Shown here: piece by piece, positions 9,501 to 58,765 of the stretch
Numbering within the stretch: the stretch's first letter is position 1
Layout: the number at the start of each line of letters is the position of its first letter
NCBI GenBank assembly: GCA_000614405.2
Contig: GCA_000614405.2_3612.1
DNA length: 64,000 nucleotides
From: Escherichia coli O157:H7 str. 2011EL-2287
GTDB taxonomy: Bacteria; Pseudomonadota; Gammaproteobacteria; Enterobacterales; Enterobacteriaceae
Reading direction: 5' to 3' (one strand)
The notes under the pieces: generated by a model
Databases searched by the model: none
What the model saw: the letters and a program-made list of their open reading frames with translations, nothing else
Told to the model about the DNA's origin: nothing
Translations under genes and position numbers: made by a program

Positions 9501-12202
9501 ACGCTGTTGACCCATACATAAATTTCGCAGCTTTGCATGCGAATATGGATGGTGCAAGGTATCCGTTCGACGTTCCAGTTGCCAATGGGTACAAACGTGT
9601 TGTGATGATCATTAAGTGCGACCTGATAGGTAAACAAGTTCTTGCAGAAAACGGGACATCCACACATCCTTTTGAGATCGCTCTGCACTATCAGTTTGCT
9701 GACTCACCTTTTGCAGGGGATAAGAGAATATCTGATACAGACGCACAGCGTTGTAAGAAAGTATTGTTGGGTGCAGGTTGGTGGTGGTATGAGTTTGATT
9801 TAACAGATAAGTTCACAGATGATACCAAGACTCTCACAGGTATCCGTCTGGATCTTGGTGAGAACATGCACAAAGCTGTTTGTGATGGCACCTACGGTGA
9901 TCCTACAGTATACTTGAAGTATGTCTCTCTTGAGCATCCAGAGGATGCCGTAATCGGTCCTAAACTGAAATTATTCGGCGCATGGATTGCCAAGGATAGA
10001 GTAGGTATGGGTAAGAAAGTGAGAGGATTCCTGATAGATGCAGGAACAGAGGACATGCTGGTTAATGCAGTGTGGCCTACGCTAGAAGGAACTGCCTACA
10101 ACAATGCAGCCAGGTCTATAAATTGGTTCAACATTCACAGAGCTATGTGGACTACCAACTGCTACTTGTGGAGAGAGCTCAACGATCAGGCCTTTGGCTT
10201 TAGTAACGGCAGAAGGATGGCGATCATCTGCTGGACAACACTGCAAAGATGTTATGACCATGACTACGAGATTGGCGGTAGAGCATGGAAAGATATCCGA
10301 GATAGAATCATATACAATTTTGCAGATGATAATGGTGGCGGGGCATATAACTTTGGCACAAGCCGACTTATCCACTTGAACGGATCTTCAGCCTACAAGA
10401 AAGAAGGTTACTCTGGATCCATGATCGAGTGGGGTCTGGTGAAAGATGCTCGCGTATTGATGGGCCAGCAACTTGCTGCCGCAATAGGTCCCAGCGCAGT
10501 GCAGTCGGTTAAACCAGCGTGGTTTGATATTCCATTGTGGTCACCCGGAACACCGGGAACTGCTGCAATCAACCCTACCACTGGGGATCTAGAAATCTCC
10601 TGGGAGGACTTGAAGCAGGTCGGCGGTTGGGACAAAACAGGGTATCAGGTTCAGTGGTGGAGAGCTGATGGATCTTTAGCTGCTGATGAGTTTGTTAAGG
10701 ACAATTTCTACACTATGTCCTCTGCAAAAGCACAGCAATTATTTGGTCAGGCCACTCCGTCAACAATCACCATGTCTATGTGCTGTAAAGACAACAGGAC
10801 TGGAGCTTTGGGGCCAAGGGTTGCTAAGGTTTTCTCAGGTATTAAATGGAATCTTCCTGTTCAAAGTGTTTCATGGAAGCAAATAGGTGATAACAAGCTG
10901 CTGGTTACCCCTGCCTGTCAGTTCAACGCAACTCTTAACGTTAATCCTGCTGTTGCGGCAAACTCAGCTAAAGCTTCTGACTTCTCTGTGTCTAACACCG
11001 CTATGGCAGATGTGAGGAAGATTGACACACTGAACGCCAGAATTACCTGTAAAAACACTTATGGCACATTCCAGATCATCAACAACTTCACAGATGCTGA
11101 TTCTAAGGTAGTGAGGACAGCAAGCCAGACTTTGAGTTTAGGAACTCTGGCCTATGCGGCCCTGATCACTGAACAGTCGGCAACACTCCAAGGAGGTGGT
11201 GTAGGCAAGTCCATTACAACACCTGTGTGGAAGCCAAATGAGTGGGTTGTGTTTGATTTGACTGTGGACTTCTCCAGCGATAATAACTGGACATGGGTAA
11301 GGAATTGTTTGTCACAGTTGATGGGCGGTCCAAGCTCCGTTAGTGATAGTCACGACTCTACTGACCCGAGTGTGTTCCAGGTAGGTAAAACTCACCCAGA
11401 GACTGGAGAAACGTTGCCTGACAGGAAGTATGCTTTGGTTTGCATCTCTTACGGAAAAGCAGATGTCACCTTCTCAGGGACACACACTTATAACGGAACT
11501 TACAACTTCTCAAGGAAGTATAGTCTCAAAGCAGGGAACATTATAGACGAGGTTGGTGTGCTGTATAATCCGGGCAACGGCATAGGGATTGTTGGTGGTA
11601 AACTGCAGATGCAGGAACCTTCTATTACCCCTTCCAACGTAGCCGGGATTAGAAAGACTTGGGAAAGTAGTAATACCAACATTGCAACAGTGGATGCCAC
11701 CACAGGACTGGTAACATTTAAAGCTACTGGGAATGTCACCATAAAGTTTGTAGTTACTGATGATGCAGGGCGCAAAACGTCTTCAACATCTTTTACTGTC
11801 AAACAGATGGCACCACAGTGGAGAATGTGGATAGGTACAGCAACAAACGGGGCATACCCTAATCCGGCAGGTACTTCTGGTATGAAGACTTTCTCTACAA
11901 GCAAACCGATGGAGTACGGCAGCGGTCCTAAGGTAGGGCAGATGGTGTACTTTGGTGCGTATATTCCTGAAATTATAGGGCTTCCGAGAAGTCAGCTTCA
12001 GTTGCTGTTTGGGGCTGGTGTTGACGATCTTGCCACTTTCGGGTATAGCGACAACATCGAGGCTGCAAGGAGTTCAGGATGGGTAGGGTTCAGAATGGAG
12101 CCTGGAAAGGAAGGCAGGATTCTAGGGACAGCCTCTATAGGTGTTATGTTCCCTGGTGACCAGCAGTATCGTCTAGAAGCCTACGCAACCTTTTCTCGTT
12201 AA
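6566..12202 (+). CDS. giant virion/tail-associated protein with Ig-like (Big_2-type) domain
   Basis: 1878-aa ORF; Ig-like segment (TWESSNTNIATVDATTGLVTFKATGNVTIKFVVTDDAG); N-terminal Gly-rich repeats; last gene of late operon. Confidence 0.55.
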   Translation: MLPIPLLKLGRHFLDKRGGIKELAVLSYPIDNSDGTSNTVSYVNSLAILFDDGQLNITGYNRFGECRTGDLDTINYPNEAAWNVDHVWRADRAFVIRTFDNKFFYIGCTAGLIGSEAAGGNDVCVREWTPLPEQIVTGLHLDTHPERLVEVMGGVNNTVWVIAAPEADGMLHLYGSGNNTYGSLHVDKSQHATPVKIGETSESPETGPWKNPRINCEVHDNSVIFGGPNGFWIAGYDFLRNNSKNTLVYPAEHVTLDQFKGIPVGETWKGFMCGPNGAIIATERMHKPDDQQLVNVFYGQDVWGDDTWRSLNITYTHEVIMARGYGTSGIFFNNGTKQYRGFSRNLCNDIGAQSANNSPRANFIHYRALATAKFVEQTEPVSWTESVYFQGIHREGFLGTFCVVNGKLWWSGIPRGSFSGSNNLFGGRLNSQGFTEIPENWYKNVPVDSWGIEDIFDVNGVSNVSNIYIGDTVKMKLKPQPEGATFIIDKIELVNAAGTVVTDANYQFSTNWNHGGANEVVVTQYNRNINRRGLYSIKITYHDKHGTGRTYTTRTLNWNTIVPAYPSNGKWHTVGRNKQFHVNDTVYFGLNGTQPAVEGDTSYMVRLHRMDAGSVTYDVTQEIYDQRRATYDNIVKTQALWEFNPNGKGGKMLQVNEQNGTSLTVHEHPDPWPDPGKPHPGARTLKIVSHDAGYFGIRWEATVRYVDGTTNNIGITLGGTSEDNSLKIAYTPRGISIDNMDVVRNGYGDVNVKVTLGEHLGGERIIMYAFDHDPRTNGTYANQAWSYLINAPEPNTKEFYYGMKRDVCKKTGTHDWIAICVKDERTAWDEPVNRWFIGIPTRSDKYVAEYIVCMGGTNLNMCWNEDVNKYSDYDYMRDYSCNLWFNQTTGYPPRQARVNPAIFTDTQVFLTKQANEVQTFKNNYDPNKWFYNCYGAYFWGPAELPDSGSCFEAATYGSDYIMGQVKKYKMIPGPETLGNAVDPYINFAALHANMDGARYPFDVPVANGYKRVVMIIKCDLIGKQVLAENGTSTHPFEIALHYQFADSPFAGDKRISDTDAQRCKKVLLGAGWWWYEFDLTDKFTDDTKTLTGIRLDLGENMHKAVCDGTYGDPTVYLKYVSLEHPEDAVIGPKLKLFGAWIAKDRVGMGKKVRGFLIDAGTEDMLVNAVWPTLEGTAYNNAARSINWFNIHRAMWTTNCYLWRELNDQAFGFSNGRRMAIICWTTLQRCYDHDYEIGGRAWKDIRDRIIYNFADDNGGGAYNFGTSRLIHLNGSSAYKKEGYSGSMIEWGLVKDARVLMGQQLAAAIGPSAVQSVKPAWFDIPLWSPGTPGTAAINPTTGDLEISWEDLKQVGGWDKTGYQVQWWRADGSLAADEFVKDNFYTMSSAKAQQLFGQATPSTITMSMCCKDNRTGALGPRVAKVFSGIKWNLPVQSVSWKQIGDNKLLVTPACQFNATLNVNPAVAANSAKASDFSVSNTAMADVRKIDTLNARITCKNTYGTFQIINNFTDADSKVVRTASQTLSLGTLAYAALITEQSATLQGGGVGKSITTPVWKPNEWVVFDLTVDFSSDNNWTWVRNCLSQLMGGPSSVSDSHDSTDPSVFQVGKTHPETGETLPDRKYALVCISYGKADVTFSGTHTYNGTYNFSRKYSLKAGNIIDEVGVLYNPGNGIGIVGGKLQMQEPSITPSNVAGIRKTWESSNTNIATVDATTGLVTFKATGNVTIKFVVTDDAGRKTSSTSFTVKQMAPQWRMWIGTATNGAYPNPAGTSGMKTFSTSKPMEYGSGPKVGQMVYFGAYIPEIIGLPRSQLQLLFGAGVDDLATFGYSDNIEAARSSGWVGFRMEPGKEGRILGTASIGVMFPGDQQYRLEAYATFSR

Positions 12203-34135: not shown

Positions 34136-36559
34136 ATGAGCATGTGGTCGTTCGACTTTGAGTCATCCGGTTTGCTGGAAGACCCAGATCTTTATTATCA
34201 CTGCGGCCTGTTTAAAGAGCTGAATAAGAACCGTTTTATGCTGTTCCTTCCTCTAAATGACCGCACACACTACTCCGAGGAGGATATAGAAAAGGCTAAG
34301 AACTTCATTCTGGCAAAGAAAACTCTTTATAAAGATTTTGAAGTTCGCATAGCAGATTTTTCAGAGTTGGAAGGTTGGCTTACAGGAAATTCTGACTGGT
34401 CACCAACAGCTTTGAACTGCCATAACTGCTACAGTTATGACTTTATGCTGATGGAAAGATTATCTGGTATTCATTTTGATATGTTCCGTGATCCTAAATG
34501 TATGGGGACTATCAACGATCACCAGGTTAACCTGTTTGATACGTTGGCGATGAGCCGAATCTTGTGGCCTGATCGCCCTTTACCAAAAGGTTGTCCGGAC
34601 TCTGTATTCAACCCGGTTACTAAGAAAATGCAGCCTGTTGGTCCTCACGGCCTTATGGCATGGGGCTACGCCCTTGGTAACCAGAAAGTTCAAATTGATG
34701 ACTGGCGCGATCTTCCGTTATGGAAGTATGTGGATCGTGTATTTGAGGACGTTATCATCCAGGAGCTGCTCTGGAAAGAGCTGGTAGCGGAATCAAAAGG
34801 TGTATTCTACGGCAAATCTGACATGCAGAACTTTATGTACGATCCTGCCAAAGAGAAGCCGAAAGGGTTCAAGAAGATCACCTGGAAGAACGCATTACGT
34901 CGAGGCATGTTGCAGCACTTCCTGATGGAGCTGCAGGCCCGTCAGGGTGTATACTTCGACATAGATGGAGCTATTGCTTTACGTGACCGTTGCGATGCGT
35001 GGATGAAAGAAATCGCTGATCGTGTTGAACCACAACTGCCTTTAAAAGAGCTGTTAATGTCTCAGCGGCCCAAGTTCCCTGAAAAGCCGTTTAACCAAGA
35101 TGGGACAATCTCTAATAATGGTTGGAAATGGTTAAAAGATAAGCTTGGCTATCCTGTGGACATGAGTGCTTTAGAGTTCAAAGCCCCACCTAAGCGAGCA
35201 TTTACCTCTACAGGAGATGTCAGTAAGATGGGGATAAAATGGTGTGAAGAGATGGGCTGCAAAGACCACGATAAGATGGCTGATTTCTTGAGAGGCTATA
35301 TTAAGGGCACCTCCACACCACAACCTTTACCTAAAGAGCTGATGGATCAGGCAATAAGCGATCTGCAGCAGAAGCGAATGCCTGACTGCAAGATACCTAT
35401 GAAAATCAGCAATCAGGACGATATTAAGCGATACCTGATCAGTGCTGGTTGGCTTCCGACAATGTGGAGAACTAAGGATGTAACTAAAGACAGCAAGAAG
35501 AAAGCTTTACCTGATGCAGATGTTGATGCACGAGTATATGCATATATGGACGAGCTTTTGGAGTCAGAGTATTGTGACCTAATTATCAACTTCTGGAACA
35601 AAACTGATGCTAAGTTCCAGACAACCGTGCACAAGTTCCGAAGCTTTCCTAACTCCGAAAGGATTAAAAAGGAAGTATTCGGGAAAATACGTAGAAAAGC
35701 TAGGGCACTTATTACTTCTCCGCAACTGAAAGATACGTTTGGACACCTGTGTCCGAATCTTGAAAAATTGAACGGAGAGATGGCTAAAGATATCGTCTTA
35801 TGGTTATCATTGCGAAACCGCAGATCGGTCCTTGATCCACTCAAGGAGGATAAGGTTGACACTGGTCTTCTTAATCACCCACGCTTGAAGATTGACCATA
35901 AGCTTCCTGCTAAAAGTTCTGGGCTAACAAACACTTCCAGACAGAAACACAGTATTTGTGCAAACATGCCTAAACCATCTCCTAAAGTGGTTATGGGTAA
36001 AGAGATGCGTAGTCTATGGGGTGTTCCTCCGGGATACTTTGAGATCGGTATTGACGGGTCCAACTTAGAGCAGCTTATCGGAGCTTGGGGTGCCTTTGAG
36101 TTCGACAACGGCTTGTATTATGATGTTGTAAGTAACGGGGACGCACACCAAAACAATGCTGAGGCATATACAAAAGTAGCAGGTAGAGAGGTGTCTCGTA
36201 ACGACGGTAAACCTATCACGTATGGGGTTATGTACGGGGCACAAAAAGATAAAGTTGCAGACATGCTGGATATCTCTCCAGAGTTGGGACAAAGGGTAAT
36301 CGATGCACTCTGGGATGCCAACCCTGGTCTTAAGGGGCGCAAAGAGGATCTGGAGAAATTCTGGGAAGCAACAGGTAAGAAGTTTATCTACTCTTTTGAT
36401 GGTCATGCTATCTGGACCCGATCTAAACACTCTTTACTTAATGCATACCAACAGAATGGTGGTGCATCGCTGTGTGACTTAGTTGGGATACTCATGCACC
36501 ACCAAATGGTGAAGCGTGGGTGGTACGATGAAGGTGTTCGTCGTATTATTTATTACCAT
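34136..36559 (+). CDS. family A DNA polymerase, exon 1 (3'-5' exonuclease + polymerase motifs A and B)
   Basis: Exo I FDFESSG, HCGLF and WGYALG align to T7 gp5 as I recall it; motif A GIDGSNLEQLIGAWGAFEFDNG; motif B RNDGKPITYGVMYGA; ORF stops right at the His of motif C. Confidence 0.85.
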
Positions 36560-36835
36560 AAATAACATTGTGGCTTCATAGAGTAATCTATGTCGAATAA
36601 CCTCTTTAACTGCGGGAAGCCTAAACCTTATGGCAAGGTAATCCGCAACGAAGCGCTCAAAAGAGCGAACGCTCAGAGGCCATTCCGAAAGGAAGTAGAC
36701 CAGCAAGTGCGGTCGAAATGGGAGGATTCCTGTGGTTGCTTATCATAGGAATATGAGATGGTCCGATCCTACGTGAAAACGTATGGCTATGCACGTAATG
36801 GTGCGGGGTAGCTTAACGACCTACCTGAACTATTG
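36560..36835 (+). ncRNA. group I self-splicing intron (no ORF) in DNA polymerase gene
   Basis: Inserted between His and Asp-Glu of motif C; follows exon U, ends with G; GUGG guide near 5' end pairs with exon CCAU; core elements AACUGCGGGAAG, AAUCCGCAAC, GUAGACCAGC, GAGAUGGUCC. Confidence 0.7.
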
Positions 36836-45145: not shown

Positions 45146-45454
45146 TACTTGAAAATTCCTGGCATATCAAGTATAAGGGGGATTTCTAAAATGGATTTCC
45201 TCCTTTTGATATTTCACCGGGCCGGATATTTTAAAATTCTTAGAAAATCAGAAAATGGATCGAAAACTAAAATGGATTTTTCAGAGTAGGCGCGACAAGC
45301 TGAATAACTCATCCTATCGTTTGCACCATATTCCAGACCACCATTATAGATTTCCCGCACATGCTTACATCTCGCTACTAGAACTTCCTCCACTTACCCT
45401 TGACCTTTTATAGCAATAATCCAACCACTATCTTGAAGTTGCGGTGCAGCTTTC

Positions 45455-45620
45455 CAGGTACTCGATCTGTTTTTCGTTTCAAAGATTGAATTTTCTGAAA
45501 ATTTTTCTCGATAAATTTCTCAGTACTCGATCTGTTTTTCGTTTTCTGAATCGGATTTTCTGGAAATCGCTCCGGCTCTTGGCCTAAACTTTTTGGGGAC
45601 GAAATCGATTTTTCGTTTTC
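45455..45620. repeat. direct repeats (CAGGTACTCGATCTGTTTTTCGTTT x2 plus related CGAAATCGATTTTTCGTTTTC)
   Basis: Near-identical 25-bp copies at 45455 and 45521; related copy at 45600; AT-rich non-coding context. Confidence 0.5.
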
Positions 45621-45747
45621 AGAAATGGATTTTTAAAATTTCTATATGGGAATATTTTAGTGGATACTATTTTATAGGAAATTGTTACGGAGGGTAATTA
45701 GCGTGCTAATTAAATTTATTAAATGCGAGGAGTTCTCATTTAGAATT

Positions 45748-45766
45748 TTGAATGATAATCATTCTC
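45748..45766. promoter_or_regulatory. Fur-box-like operator (copy 1)
   Basis: TTGAATGATAATCATTCTC matches the Fur consensus GATAATGATAATCATTATC at 15/19. Confidence 0.45.
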
Positions 45767-45780
45767 GTTTGCAGAATAAC

Positions 45781-45821
45781 GGGCAGGCCCGGTGATTGTC
45801 TCCCGGCCCCTACTGCCCCGG
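45781..45821 (+). repeat. GC-rich structured element (copy 1)
   Basis: GGCAGGCCCGGTGATTGTCTCCC core shared with 45921 and, inverted, 54594. Confidence 0.5.
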
Positions 45822-45883
45822 CTTGTTATTATAGTAACACACAGGACAAAGAAAGCAAGAAGTTTTTGCATAAATTTTTAGAC

Positions 45884-45902
45884 GATAATGATAATCGTTC
45901 TC
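45884..45902. promoter_or_regulatory. Fur-box-like operator (copy 2)
   Basis: GATAATGATAATCGTTCTC matches Fur consensus at 17/19; overlaps a GATAAT -10-like hexamer with TTGCAT 18 nt upstream. Confidence 0.5.
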
Positions 45903-45920
45903 ATTTCATGCAGCGCCCAT

Positions 45921-45957
45921 CCCCGGTGGTTGTCTCCCCCGTCACCGGTGCCTGCCG
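45921..45957 (+). repeat. GC-rich structured element (copy 2)
   Basis: CCGGTGGTTGTCTCCCCCGTCACCGGTGCCTGCCG; internal inverted repeat CCGGTG/CACCGG. Confidence 0.5.
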
Positions 45958-46164
45958 TCCTTTCGATAGGTATATTTTGCCACCTGGCGGGGCCGCTGTC
46001 AACACTTTTCAAAAAAAAAAATTTCTAACCTGATGCGCTGACCGCTGCAACCTGGCGGGGCCAGCCTGGCAGGGCCTAACTGACCAGGTAGGAGAGAATG
46101 AAGGCTTGCAAACCTGGTGGGCCTATGCTATAGGATAGGTAACAATTGAAGAGGAGGTACAAAA

Positions 46165-46341
46165 ATGGAAGGTAATATGATCCCCCTGGAAAATGTAGCT
46201 ATTAATGACGCTGAGGCTATCGCCCTGGTTGAAAAGGCTATGGCGGGAGCGTTGGAACATAAAGAAGAGTACGAAAAAATGATGGTTAACCTGGCAGGGG
46301 CGGCGGCTGGAGAATTCTACCCAAAAAATAATTTTAACTAA
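46165..46341 (+). CDS. small hypothetical protein (58 aa)
   Basis: Below ORF-track threshold; strong RBS GAGGAGG before ATG. Confidence 0.45.
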   Translation: MEGNMIPLENVAINDAEAIALVEKAMAGALEHKEEYEKMMVNLAGAAAGEFYPKNNFN

Positions 46342-54550: not shown

Positions 54551-54580
54551 AACAGGGCTTGCAATGGTCCTGTTTTTTGT
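54551..54580 (+). terminator. rho-independent terminator
   Basis: Hairpin ACAGGGC-TTGCAATG-GTCCTGT + TTTTTT. Confidence 0.55.
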
Positions 54581-54593
54581 TATACTTATTCCA

Positions 54594-54640
54594 CGGCAGG
54601 CACCTGGCGACGGGGGAGACAATCACCGGGCCTGCCTGTC
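54594..54640 (-). repeat. GC-rich structured element (copy 3, inverted)
   Basis: Reverse complement GGCAGGCCCGGTGATTGTCTCCCCCGTCGCCAGGTGCCTGCCGT matches copy 1 (23 nt exact) and copy 2. Confidence 0.5.
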
Positions 54641-57289: not shown

Positions 57290-57873
57290 CAGGCATGTCA
57301 ATTAAGTCTAAAGTGTCAAAGGTGTCATATTATGTCACCATTATGTCAGACAAGTTTTTCTCCTCTTTGTCAAGTGCTGCATGAAAATTTACAATCTGGT
57401 ATGGTAGCATTTTTGCGGCCCTGTTTACATTCAGTTGTGTATGTATAAGCCTTGTTGTGTGGGCGTTTAGACGTCTAGACGGTTGGAAGTCTACAGGTCA
57501 ATATCTAATCTATTGGTTGCTAACTATATCCCACACAAATAGTAAGAAATATAATTGTTATGTGTGTAAACTGTAACTCATGTTATCAATCCCTGTATGG
57601 ATCGCCAGTGGTGCGCATAATGGGTATTATGTTAAATTGCCCGTAATGATAACAGTTCTCACAATGATAGGTATTCTCATTCACCCCACAAGATAGGTTG
57701 CAAATGTTGTGCCACTGTGTGAACGGCCTCACCTATTAATTTGCCTCACTGCCTCGATATTTGAGAATTATTATAAGAATGAGAAGTATTCCCATTCCGT
57801 CCGCCTGGCAGCACTCCTGTCGGTCAGGTCAAAATCGTGGTAGAATTGGGCCTATTCAGATATTTCTGGCTGA

Positions 57874-58068
57874 CTCTTCAGGTCTGTGTGGGAAAAGCCA
57901 ACCTCTCCGGCGGGGCAGGGGGAGGTCAATTAAAAAATTTACGTGGTGTATGAAGCGCTCTTCAGGTAAGGCAGGTATTATGGGATGAAACCCTCTTCAG
58001 GCAATGATATTTGTGGGTGTGATATTTGCTGGAAAGCCAGATATGACGGGACTCCCGGCGGGGCAGGG
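57874..58068 (+). repeat. direct repeats (CTCTTCAGG x3; CCGGCGGGGCAGGG x2)
   Basis: CTCTTCAGG at 57874, 57958, 57993; CCGGCGGGGCAGGG at 57907 and 58055. Confidence 0.4.
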
Positions 58069-58765
58069 GTAGTACAGACAGGGAAAATATGGGGATGTAG
58101 TTGGGTGAATTGATCGGGCAGGTAGAGTATGGAATATGTTACAAGTATGTTAAATATGGAGGTTGAATATCTGTAGGATTTGTGTGTAAAATCAAAGACT
58201 TAAGGGGTGTTGTGGTATTTTCTATAAATAATTCAAGTTTAATAGGCAATATTTGTCTCTATCCGCTTTGTGTGGTAAACAGATTCAGATTAGATTGGTT
58301 TACAAGTGTATACATAATATACAAATTAAAGATACAAGAAACCCCCCTCCCCCCTTCGGCTACCATTCACCTTTTCCTCTGACTGGTACTTAAACACTTA
58401 TTCAGACTCTTCAGGTTATCACCCATATATCATATGGCAGTGACTGGTGTCCTCCGGCCCCTCTTTCGTCACCCGTCCGCTTCGCCATGCTAATGCCATA
58501 GCTAATGGTTCGGTTGTTCACCCTGTTCACTCAGGTGTATCTCTATACCCCTTCAAACCGAAGAGAACAGAAAACCCGAATTACTCGGTAAAAGAAAAGA
58601 GAAGAACTTAATTTTATCAGGATAGGCAAGAATGTCAAGGCATGACTGCTCACTAAACAAGCAAACAGTCATGTGTGGGAGGTAAGTGATTGTGGTGGTA
58701 GGAAATTTAGTTGAAAGATGTGTTATAGGTGCTTCCAGCACTTTAGCCGGGCAGCTAATTGTGTG

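Follow-up and report, generated by a model that had tools for sequence, protein, structure and literature searches.

Two near-consensus palindromes in the largely gene-free gap of an rV5-like Vequintavirus genome (positions 45748-45769 and 45884-45905) are probably genuine operators for the host metal sensor Fur. On the best reading of the sequence comparisons, they have been kept by selection and represent the rV5-group version of an old array, of one to four boxes at a 29-bp spacing, that would lie in the main non-coding control region of the Vequintavirinae and their relatives.

The window (the whole 64-kb stretch of DNA that was analyzed) belongs to an rV5-like Vequintavirus, and the 1.2 kb around the boxes is 96-99% identical to ~120 rV5-like phages, including Bas54 MaxBurger and rV5. 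We noted that 16 GenBank records (MG0656xx) carry the name 'Campylobacter phage' and share 97-99% identity with rV5-like phages of E. coli in this region, a resemblance suggestive of mislabelled or contaminant genomes. The boxes sit in a gene-poor gap of ~750 bp (45420-46165) with small plus-strand early genes on either side; the map in the rV5 genome paper shows only a "non-coding" box here and gives no function (PMC3606486). Short ORFs are called in this gap by some GenBank records. A 93-aa ORF annotated in Bas54 (45752-46033) was rejected as coding: it reads the two copies of a conserved core, described below, in different frames, and hence is not conserved as a protein. The first-pass annotation, made from the letters of the sequence, had called the region non-coding, and this result bears it out. 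Capture of the box unit from the host was also rejected, as blastn against 5,426 E. coli genomes returned no meaningful match. Elsewhere in the window, a Group I catalytic intron was found on the plus strand at 36550-36785 (Rfam RF00028; it scored 64.7 bits, where the gathering score is 50); no tRNA or tmRNA was found in the window.

Fur-box-like palindromes in the gap and their conservation

Candidate sites were scored against the classical 19-bp Fur consensus (GATAATGATAATCATTATC), a symmetric 9-1-9 form (AATGATAATnATTATCATT), and a 7-1-7 inverted repeat; none of the boxes is assigned a strand. Fur box 2 (GATAATGATAATCGTTCTCATT, 45884-45905) contains the 19-mer GATAATGATAATCGTTCTC (45884-45902), which has two mismatches to the classical consensus (17/19) and is the sole site with three or fewer mismatches in the window, where 0.03 are expected. 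Fur box 1 (TTGAATGATAATCATTCTCGTT, 45748-45769) contains the 19-mer TTGAATGATAATCATTCTC at 45748, a 15/19 match, and the TTG at its left edge is conserved even though it falls outside the palindrome. Each box scores 16/18 on the 9-1-9 form, the two best values in the window, and 13/15 on the 7-1-7 form. The two boxes belong to a tandem duplication with a period of 136 nt for the box block (90% identity) and of 134 nt for CCCGGTGRTTGTCTCCC, the core of the neighboring GC-rich element (94%). Both matches to the classical consensus, and the tandem duplication of a ~75-bp unit about 135 bp apart, had been reported in the first-pass annotation and were recovered here at the same positions.

For calibration, promoter regions of E. 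coli K-12 with established Fur control (fepA-fes, fepD-entS, fepB-entC, fhuA, and ryhB) were scored identically. Their operators reached 13-16/19, 12-14/15, and 14-16/18 on the classical, 7-1-7, and 9-1-9 forms, respectively, and the window boxes lie within or above that range. The operator of ryhB is AATAATAATCATTCTCATT and that of fhuA TATAATAATCATTCTCGTT; the commonest phage box, AATGATAATCATTCTCATT, is one nucleotide away from the ryhB sequence. Like the enterobacterial operators of ryhB, fhuA, fepB-entC, and iucA, the window boxes are 19-bp dyads, with an ATTCTCA half-site identical to that of ryhB and fhuA. Unlike them, they lie on a virulent phage, in a gene-free region with no regulated iron gene attached, and are discrete sites 29 bp apart, whereas host Fur operators cluster as overlapping sites at a 6-bp phase (PMC2189734).

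The window holds four weaker Fur-like boxes in addition to the two strong ones. A decayed distal box (AATGCGAGGAGTTCTCATT, 45722-45740; 12/18, hand-counted) lies exactly 29 bp to the left of box 1 and is the homologue of the distal box in phages 4MG, BIS47, and ESCO13. The other three form a cluster at 57645-57796 (13/18 at 57645, 15/18 at 57663, and 14/18 at 57778) in a separate non-coding region of ~1.3 kb, and this cluster is conserved only within Vequintavirus. We noted that this second large non-coding region (57450-58750) lies at a switch of gene orientation and also carries GTGATATTTG repeats (58005-58035). In CR3 and 4MG the GTGATATTTG repeats adjoin iterons, an arrangement which suggests that one ancestral control region was split in the rV5 group.

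The iterons of the window, three direct repeats (ACTCGATCTGTTTTTCGTTT...) of ~52-65 nt on the plus strand, lie immediately to the left of the boxes at 45451-45641. CR3, CB7, 4MG, 18-1-2, and the Aeromonas phage have kept homologous iterons, each with two GATC and with AAAAAATTTTT at the end. The iterons are the sole hint of a replication origin and indicate that function weakly; the gap contains no DnaA box and there is no GC-skew turn at 45.5 kb, and an origin here is at best a weak candidate. Physical genome ends at the boxes were rejected: two records start near the region, and their annotation offers no sign of termini.

A 111-nt query comprising box 1 and its GC-rich element matched 266 phage records, including CR3, PVP-SE1, CB7, Hena1, BIS47, ESCO13, and Aeromonas phage 2L372X. 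In other genera of the Vequintavirinae (e.g. CR3, CB7, PVP-SE1, 4MG, BIS47, and Hena1), a stretch of ~60 nt covering both the box and the beginning of the GC-rich element is 84-89% identical, and the unit is still recognizable in the Stephanstirmvirinae (ESCO13 and relatives, ~75% over 89 nt) and in the Aeromonas Plateaulakevirus (85% over 41 nt). The proximal box and ~35 nt to its right are conserved in all of these groups and in a jumbo-phage contig. In a box-anchored alignment of 13 lineages, the mean frequency of the top base was 0.96 in the box, compared with 0.52 in the left flank and 0.74 in the next 18 nt, as expected if selection had kept the dyad symmetry; the conserved pattern to the right of the box reads T...GAAT..C.GGCA....CGGTG. 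Lineages differ in box number: CR3, CB7, and ESCO13 carry four boxes each, BIS47, 4MG, and the Aeromonas phage carry two, and PVP-SE1, Hena1, and 18-1-2 have a single one. The spacing is constant at 29 bp in ESCO13, CR3, CB7, BIS47, 4MG, and the window. A box of 4MG is a perfect palindrome (AATGATAATCATTATCATT, 18/18). The first-pass annotation had proposed Fur operators, and, as far as sequence comparison can speak to this, the consensus-level match, the dyad symmetry, the 96% conservation, and the fixed spacing all support it.

Each of the relatives whose sequence was retrieved has the unit within a gap of 0.7-1.3 kb that bears no annotation. Proteins that flank these gaps gave no tblastn match in the window, hence the non-coding unit has outlived its neighboring genes. 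A phage regulator encoded next door was considered and rejected: the small minus-strand genes beside the gaps of relatives belong to at least three unrelated families with no tblastn match in the window.

Several variants of the arrangement were seen. In some rV5-like contigs (L119, at about 1000-1060, and L032), box 1 is replaced by another palindrome, GTTATTACnTnAATAAC, and box 2 is kept. A 347-kb jumbo-phage contig (L152, 1264-1289) has the same box and GGAATAGCAGGCAGG linker as the Vequintavirinae, with an opposite-strand TATAAT only ~50 nt off. The gaps examined in genera other than Vequintavirus carry, after unit 1, a second highly conserved C-rich unit, CTACCGGCGATCCACCTTCCGACC...GTTAGCCCCGCCTTTTCGCCGTGGGGTGGCG (L122 2640-2760, L123 2650-2740, and L124 2650-2740), with its own opposite-strand consensus promoter and a tandem TCTTTACAnnTCTTTACAAA; it has no Rfam match. 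This second unit is not in the window, where the duplicated Fur-box unit occupies its place.

The GC-rich element, its promoters, and a possible Fur-gated interval

To the right of each box lies a GC-rich element, which we assign to the minus strand: element 1 at 45781-45822, with the core CCCGGTGATTGTCTCCC at 45788-45804, and element 2 at 45912-45959, with the core CCCGGTGGTTGTCTCCC at 45922-45938. The conserved part of the element consists of the sequence core CGGTGnTTGTCTCC and a linker with the pattern GAAT..C.GGCA (CAGAATAACGGGCA, 45772-45785, plus strand, in unit 1). The inverted repeat CCGGTG...CACCGG that had been ascribed to both elements is present in copy 2 only; copy 1 has CCGG...CCGG and GGGCAG...CTGCCC instead. 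A third unit (54559-54640) lies inverted 8.7 kb from copy 2, with ~89% identity over 45 nt by hand count. It consists of a plus-strand promoter, TTGCAA (54559-54564)-N16-TGtTATACT with the -10 at 54581-54586, that is co-directed with the local plus-strand genes, and a GC-rich element (54593-54640) that includes an exact core copy on the minus strand (54614-54630). This third unit has no Fur box, hence the core can occur without one. Scanning IMG/VR for the GC core yielded mostly a coincidental match inside a prophage gene, unlike the unit.

The first-pass annotation had suggested that the GC-rich elements are structured non-coding RNAs, and the structure searches spoke against this. Rfam, at gathering and permissive thresholds, returned nothing relevant to the unit in the window or in three relatives, and RNAalifold on 20 aligned units predicted no pairs and no consensus structure. 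A hand-drawn two-helix model paired 68.4% of cells, compared with 68.8% in shuffles, with covariation not above controls. No intrinsic terminator follows either GC-rich element on the plus strand. For a RyhB-type sRNA we thus found neither the terminator nor a conserved structure or curated family. Folds of single sequences were mostly within 2 sd of shuffles, the exceptions being copy 3, CR3, and ESCO13; on the plus strand, the z-scores were -0.8 for copy 1, -1.1 for copy 2, and -4.5 for copy 3. Predicted leftward RNAs would fold into a 5' hairpin that encloses the core, with z-scores (-1.4 to -3.8) that are suggestive at most.

An opposite-strand, near-consensus sigma-70 promoter accompanies 12 of the 16 units, and same-strand candidates are poor. 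In unit 1, the leftward promoter (45828-45858, minus strand) has a -35 TTGCTT (45858-45853), a 19-nt spacer, and a -10 TATAAT (45833-45828); that of unit 2 (45974-46002, minus strand) reads TTGACA-N17-CAAAAT with a TG before the -10, a 10/12 match. Corresponding opposite-strand promoters are TTGCAA-N17-TATATT in CR3, CB7, and BIS47, TTGACC-N17-GATAAT in Hena1, and TTGACA-N16-TGgTATTAT in the contigs L019 and L119, the last resembling the early-promoter consensus of Certrevirus, AAAA(N3)TGTTGAC(N19)TATAAT (PMC7344957). Across the units of the Vequintavirinae, the leftward -10 ends 78-82 nt to the right of the box start. No intrinsic terminator was predicted between the leftward promoters and the boxes, nor further left. 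On the plus strand, TTGAAT (45748)-N18-CAGAAT brackets the proximal box and may be a weak promoter in which the box occupies the site of a classical repressor. It is not called by promoter scans, and the key A at position 2 of the -10-like CAGAAT is missing in 5 of 13 lineages, although the TTG and GAAT are conserved. The earlier view that each box drives a short, structured plus-strand RNA is not supported; good promoters near the GC-rich element occur only on the opposite strand. We also noted five copies of CCTGGCGGGGCC-like GC-rich 17-mers at 45981-46127 and 46288, two of which form the spacers of sigma-70-like promoters (minus strand, 46002-45974; plus strand, TTGCAA-N17-TATAGG near 46105-46133).

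We tentatively favor, at somewhat below even confidence, a reading in which the Fur operators gate transcription in the interval where a strong early promoter pointing leftward faces a weak promoter pointing rightward. The sequence match, conservation, spacing, and promoter geometry are observed; from them we infer Fur binding and its effect on transcription. The rV5 unit would comprise a Fur operator, a linker and C-rich core (GAAT..C.GGCA....CGGTGnTTGTCTCC), and the opposite-strand early promoter. The GC-rich element would then be the interval between facing promoters, with a Fur box in the spacer of the rightward one, rather than an sRNA made from a Fur-controlled promoter. A leftward transcript would start ~70 nt to the right of the box and run back through the core into the box; it would begin with the G-rich complement of the GC-rich element (~45 nt in unit 1) and meet the proximal box after ~50 nt. 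Since the 29-bp spacing approximates one Fur footprint, Fe-Fur would be expected to coat the operators in an iron-replete host. Bound Fur would occlude the rightward site and block the path of the leftward early transcripts toward the iterons (45451-45641), and transcription across the region toward those iterons would thus depend on the iron status of the host.

The gated-interval reading has weak points. In the face-to-face geometry, the leftward promoter is well supported and the rightward one is a weak match, with the loss of the -10-like A noted above; moreover, the spacer of the leftward promoter in unit 1 is 19 nt long. Some rV5-like contigs (L119 and L032) do without box 1. Unit 3 has a promoter and core without a box, hence the core does not need Fur. 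We know of no precedent for Fur as an elongation roadblock.

Arrays in other phages and competing explanations

Scanning IMG/VR for two tandem boxes returned 79 stretches in ~70 contigs, whereas no stretch was found with either of two permuted palindromes of matched composition. Between 2 and 13 boxes make up an array, and the contigs range from 21 to 65% GC. Arrays of 4-13 near-perfect boxes were found on uncultivated viral contigs (L205 10759-11325, L147 620-900, L145 1970-2115, L199 8696-8831, and L161 6851-6956), with a period of 89 bp in L205, 35 bp in L147, and 29 bp in L161; several of these regular arrays lie upstream of GP88, small-terminase, or large-terminase genes. Promoters pointing into the array were not found to be a general rule in other phages: among 136 flanks, 7 point in and 14 away.

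Several of the array contigs have T5-like genome sizes, and phage T5 itself (NC_005859, L239) has Fur-like boxes at 9552-9709 (15/18, 13, 13, 17/18, and 15/18) at a 35-bp spacing. In the T5 record the injection stop signal, as annotated, encloses these boxes (9552-9745), which adjoin the shear site at ~9618; the palindrome GCAGGGCAATTGCCCTGC and TTTTG come after them. The boxes seem to be the DRD repeats of Davison's analysis, in which Fur is not mentioned. An in-silico study of the T5 injection-stop region interpreted it through DnaA boxes and never mentioned Fur or iron (bioRxiv 10.1101/866236). The T5 region shares with the rV5 gap a large, highly conserved, untranslated stretch of repeats on a virulent phage, in which Fur-like boxes precede a GC palindrome; it differs in phage family and in position, being in a terminal repeat.

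The main rival to a gated interval is a Fur sponge, which we regard as somewhat unlikely: the boxes would be promoter-independent decoys that titrate Fur as phage DNA replicates to high copy, thereby derepressing host iron uptake and RyhB and supplying, for example, iron for the phage ribonucleotide reductase. The near-consensus boxes of the arrays, the variation of their number from one to four between lineages, and the second cluster in the window all accord with titration, as do the arrays of up to 13 boxes in other viral contigs against none for the control palindromes. Stop-rich gaps, of median length ~800 bp, house 59 of 78 such arrays, the flanking genes are ordinary phage genes rather than iron cargo, and most have no consensus promoter nearby, which fits a promoter-independent role better than a gated interval. 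Against the sponge, the rV5 group has only two strong boxes, one of which is lost in some relatives, and Fur is an abundant protein, with thousands of molecules per cell. The position of the proximal box is also fixed relative to the GAAT..C.GGCA linker and the leftward promoter, and such a position counts against a pure decoy, which would not need it. The principle of titration is itself established for plasmid-borne Fur boxes (Stojiljkovic et al., 1994, as cited in PMC2189734). The Fur titration assay (FURTA) likewise relies on high-affinity boxes on DNA that reaches high copy; it is a laboratory assay, and we found no natural phage example in the literature searched.

Explanations that dispense with a sponge or a gated interval fared less well. 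We consider it unlikely that the palindromes merely resemble Fur boxes and are instead binding sites for a phage protein, or architectural repeats belonging to an origin of replication, a packaging site, or a site of DNA entry. The adjoining iterons, the arrays upstream of terminase genes in small phage contigs, and the location of the T5 boxes inside the injection stop signal would suit such a role, but this palindrome is found again in phage groups that are unrelated and have no obvious DNA-binding protein in common, and its commonest form is a single nucleotide from a validated host operator. The unrelated small minus-strand genes of relatives, absent from the window, likewise argue against a dedicated phage protein, and the lack of a DnaA box and of a skew turn in the gap argues against the origin version. 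It is quite improbable, in turn, that the box is the operator of the plus-strand promoter and the GC-rich element a short, structured, Fur-repressed RNA with RyhB-like logic. The bracketing of the proximal box by TTGAAT-N18-CAGAAT, with its conserved TTG and GAAT, and the strong plus-strand fold of copy 3 favor such an RNA; yet copy 3 is the one without a box, copies 1 and 2 fold no better than shuffles, and the family, consensus-structure, pairing, and terminator searches described above were negative. Furthermore, the A of its -10 is not conserved, and a stronger facing promoter lies 40-50 nt ahead. Least probable by far is that intergenic DNA rich in AT happens to resemble a consensus that is itself AT-rich, with no function involved. 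A score of 13/15 on the 7-1-7 form is indeed reached in about 1% of 746-nt samples with matched base composition, but the two top-scoring sites of the window lie 136 nt apart, the box is 96% conserved in 13 divergent lineages, and the array spacing is fixed; these comparative data effectively refute chance as an explanation.

Relation to known systems and implications

Host Fur sites on phage DNA have precedents in temperate phages. The stx1 gene on a temperate phage has a Fur box. Another lies upstream of sitABCD on lambdoid prophages (PMC6969025). These boxes control a cargo gene at its promoter, whereas the array described here lies in a control region of a virulent phage with no cargo gene. 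In the literature searched, Fur boxes on phage were found only at sitABCD on lambdoid prophages, no Fur sites were reported in virulent phage genomes, and no Vequintavirus transcriptome was found. A deeply conserved Fur-box array in a gene-free control region of virulent phages is thus unlike known Fur boxes and apparently unreported. For the gated-interval reading, the closest parallel is the face-to-face promoter switch pR/pL of coliphage 186, which likewise has a strong and a weak promoter facing each other within ~40-80 bp with an operator between them. In the rV5 unit, by contrast, the rightward promoter is a weak match, the regulator would be a host metal sensor, and there is no lysis-lysogeny decision.

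It is possible, though we hold this view with reserve, that arrays of host Fur operators are a widespread and unrecognized class of cis-element in virulent phages, located in their large non-coding regions, where they would sense host iron status or sequester Fur to reprogram the iron metabolism of the host; the groups that bear them may include myoviruses of the rV5-like and phi92-like types, T5-like phages (within the injection-stop region), jumbo phages, and many phages that are uncultivated. If the arrays are this widespread, Fur would rank with IHF and DnaA among the DNA-binding proteins of the host that are routinely recruited by phages. Finding the motif within the injection-stop region of T5 suggests a new hypothesis for that site, which still lacks a mechanistic explanation.

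For the rV5 group itself, the conservation of the boxes suggests that these phages may read or manipulate the iron status of their host. If Fur binds, rV5-like phages would either couple early transcription to iron availability or alter the host iron regulon by titration. These are broad-host-range phages that are considered for therapy, and both the gut and infected tissue are poor in iron; either way, their performance in vivo would be affected.
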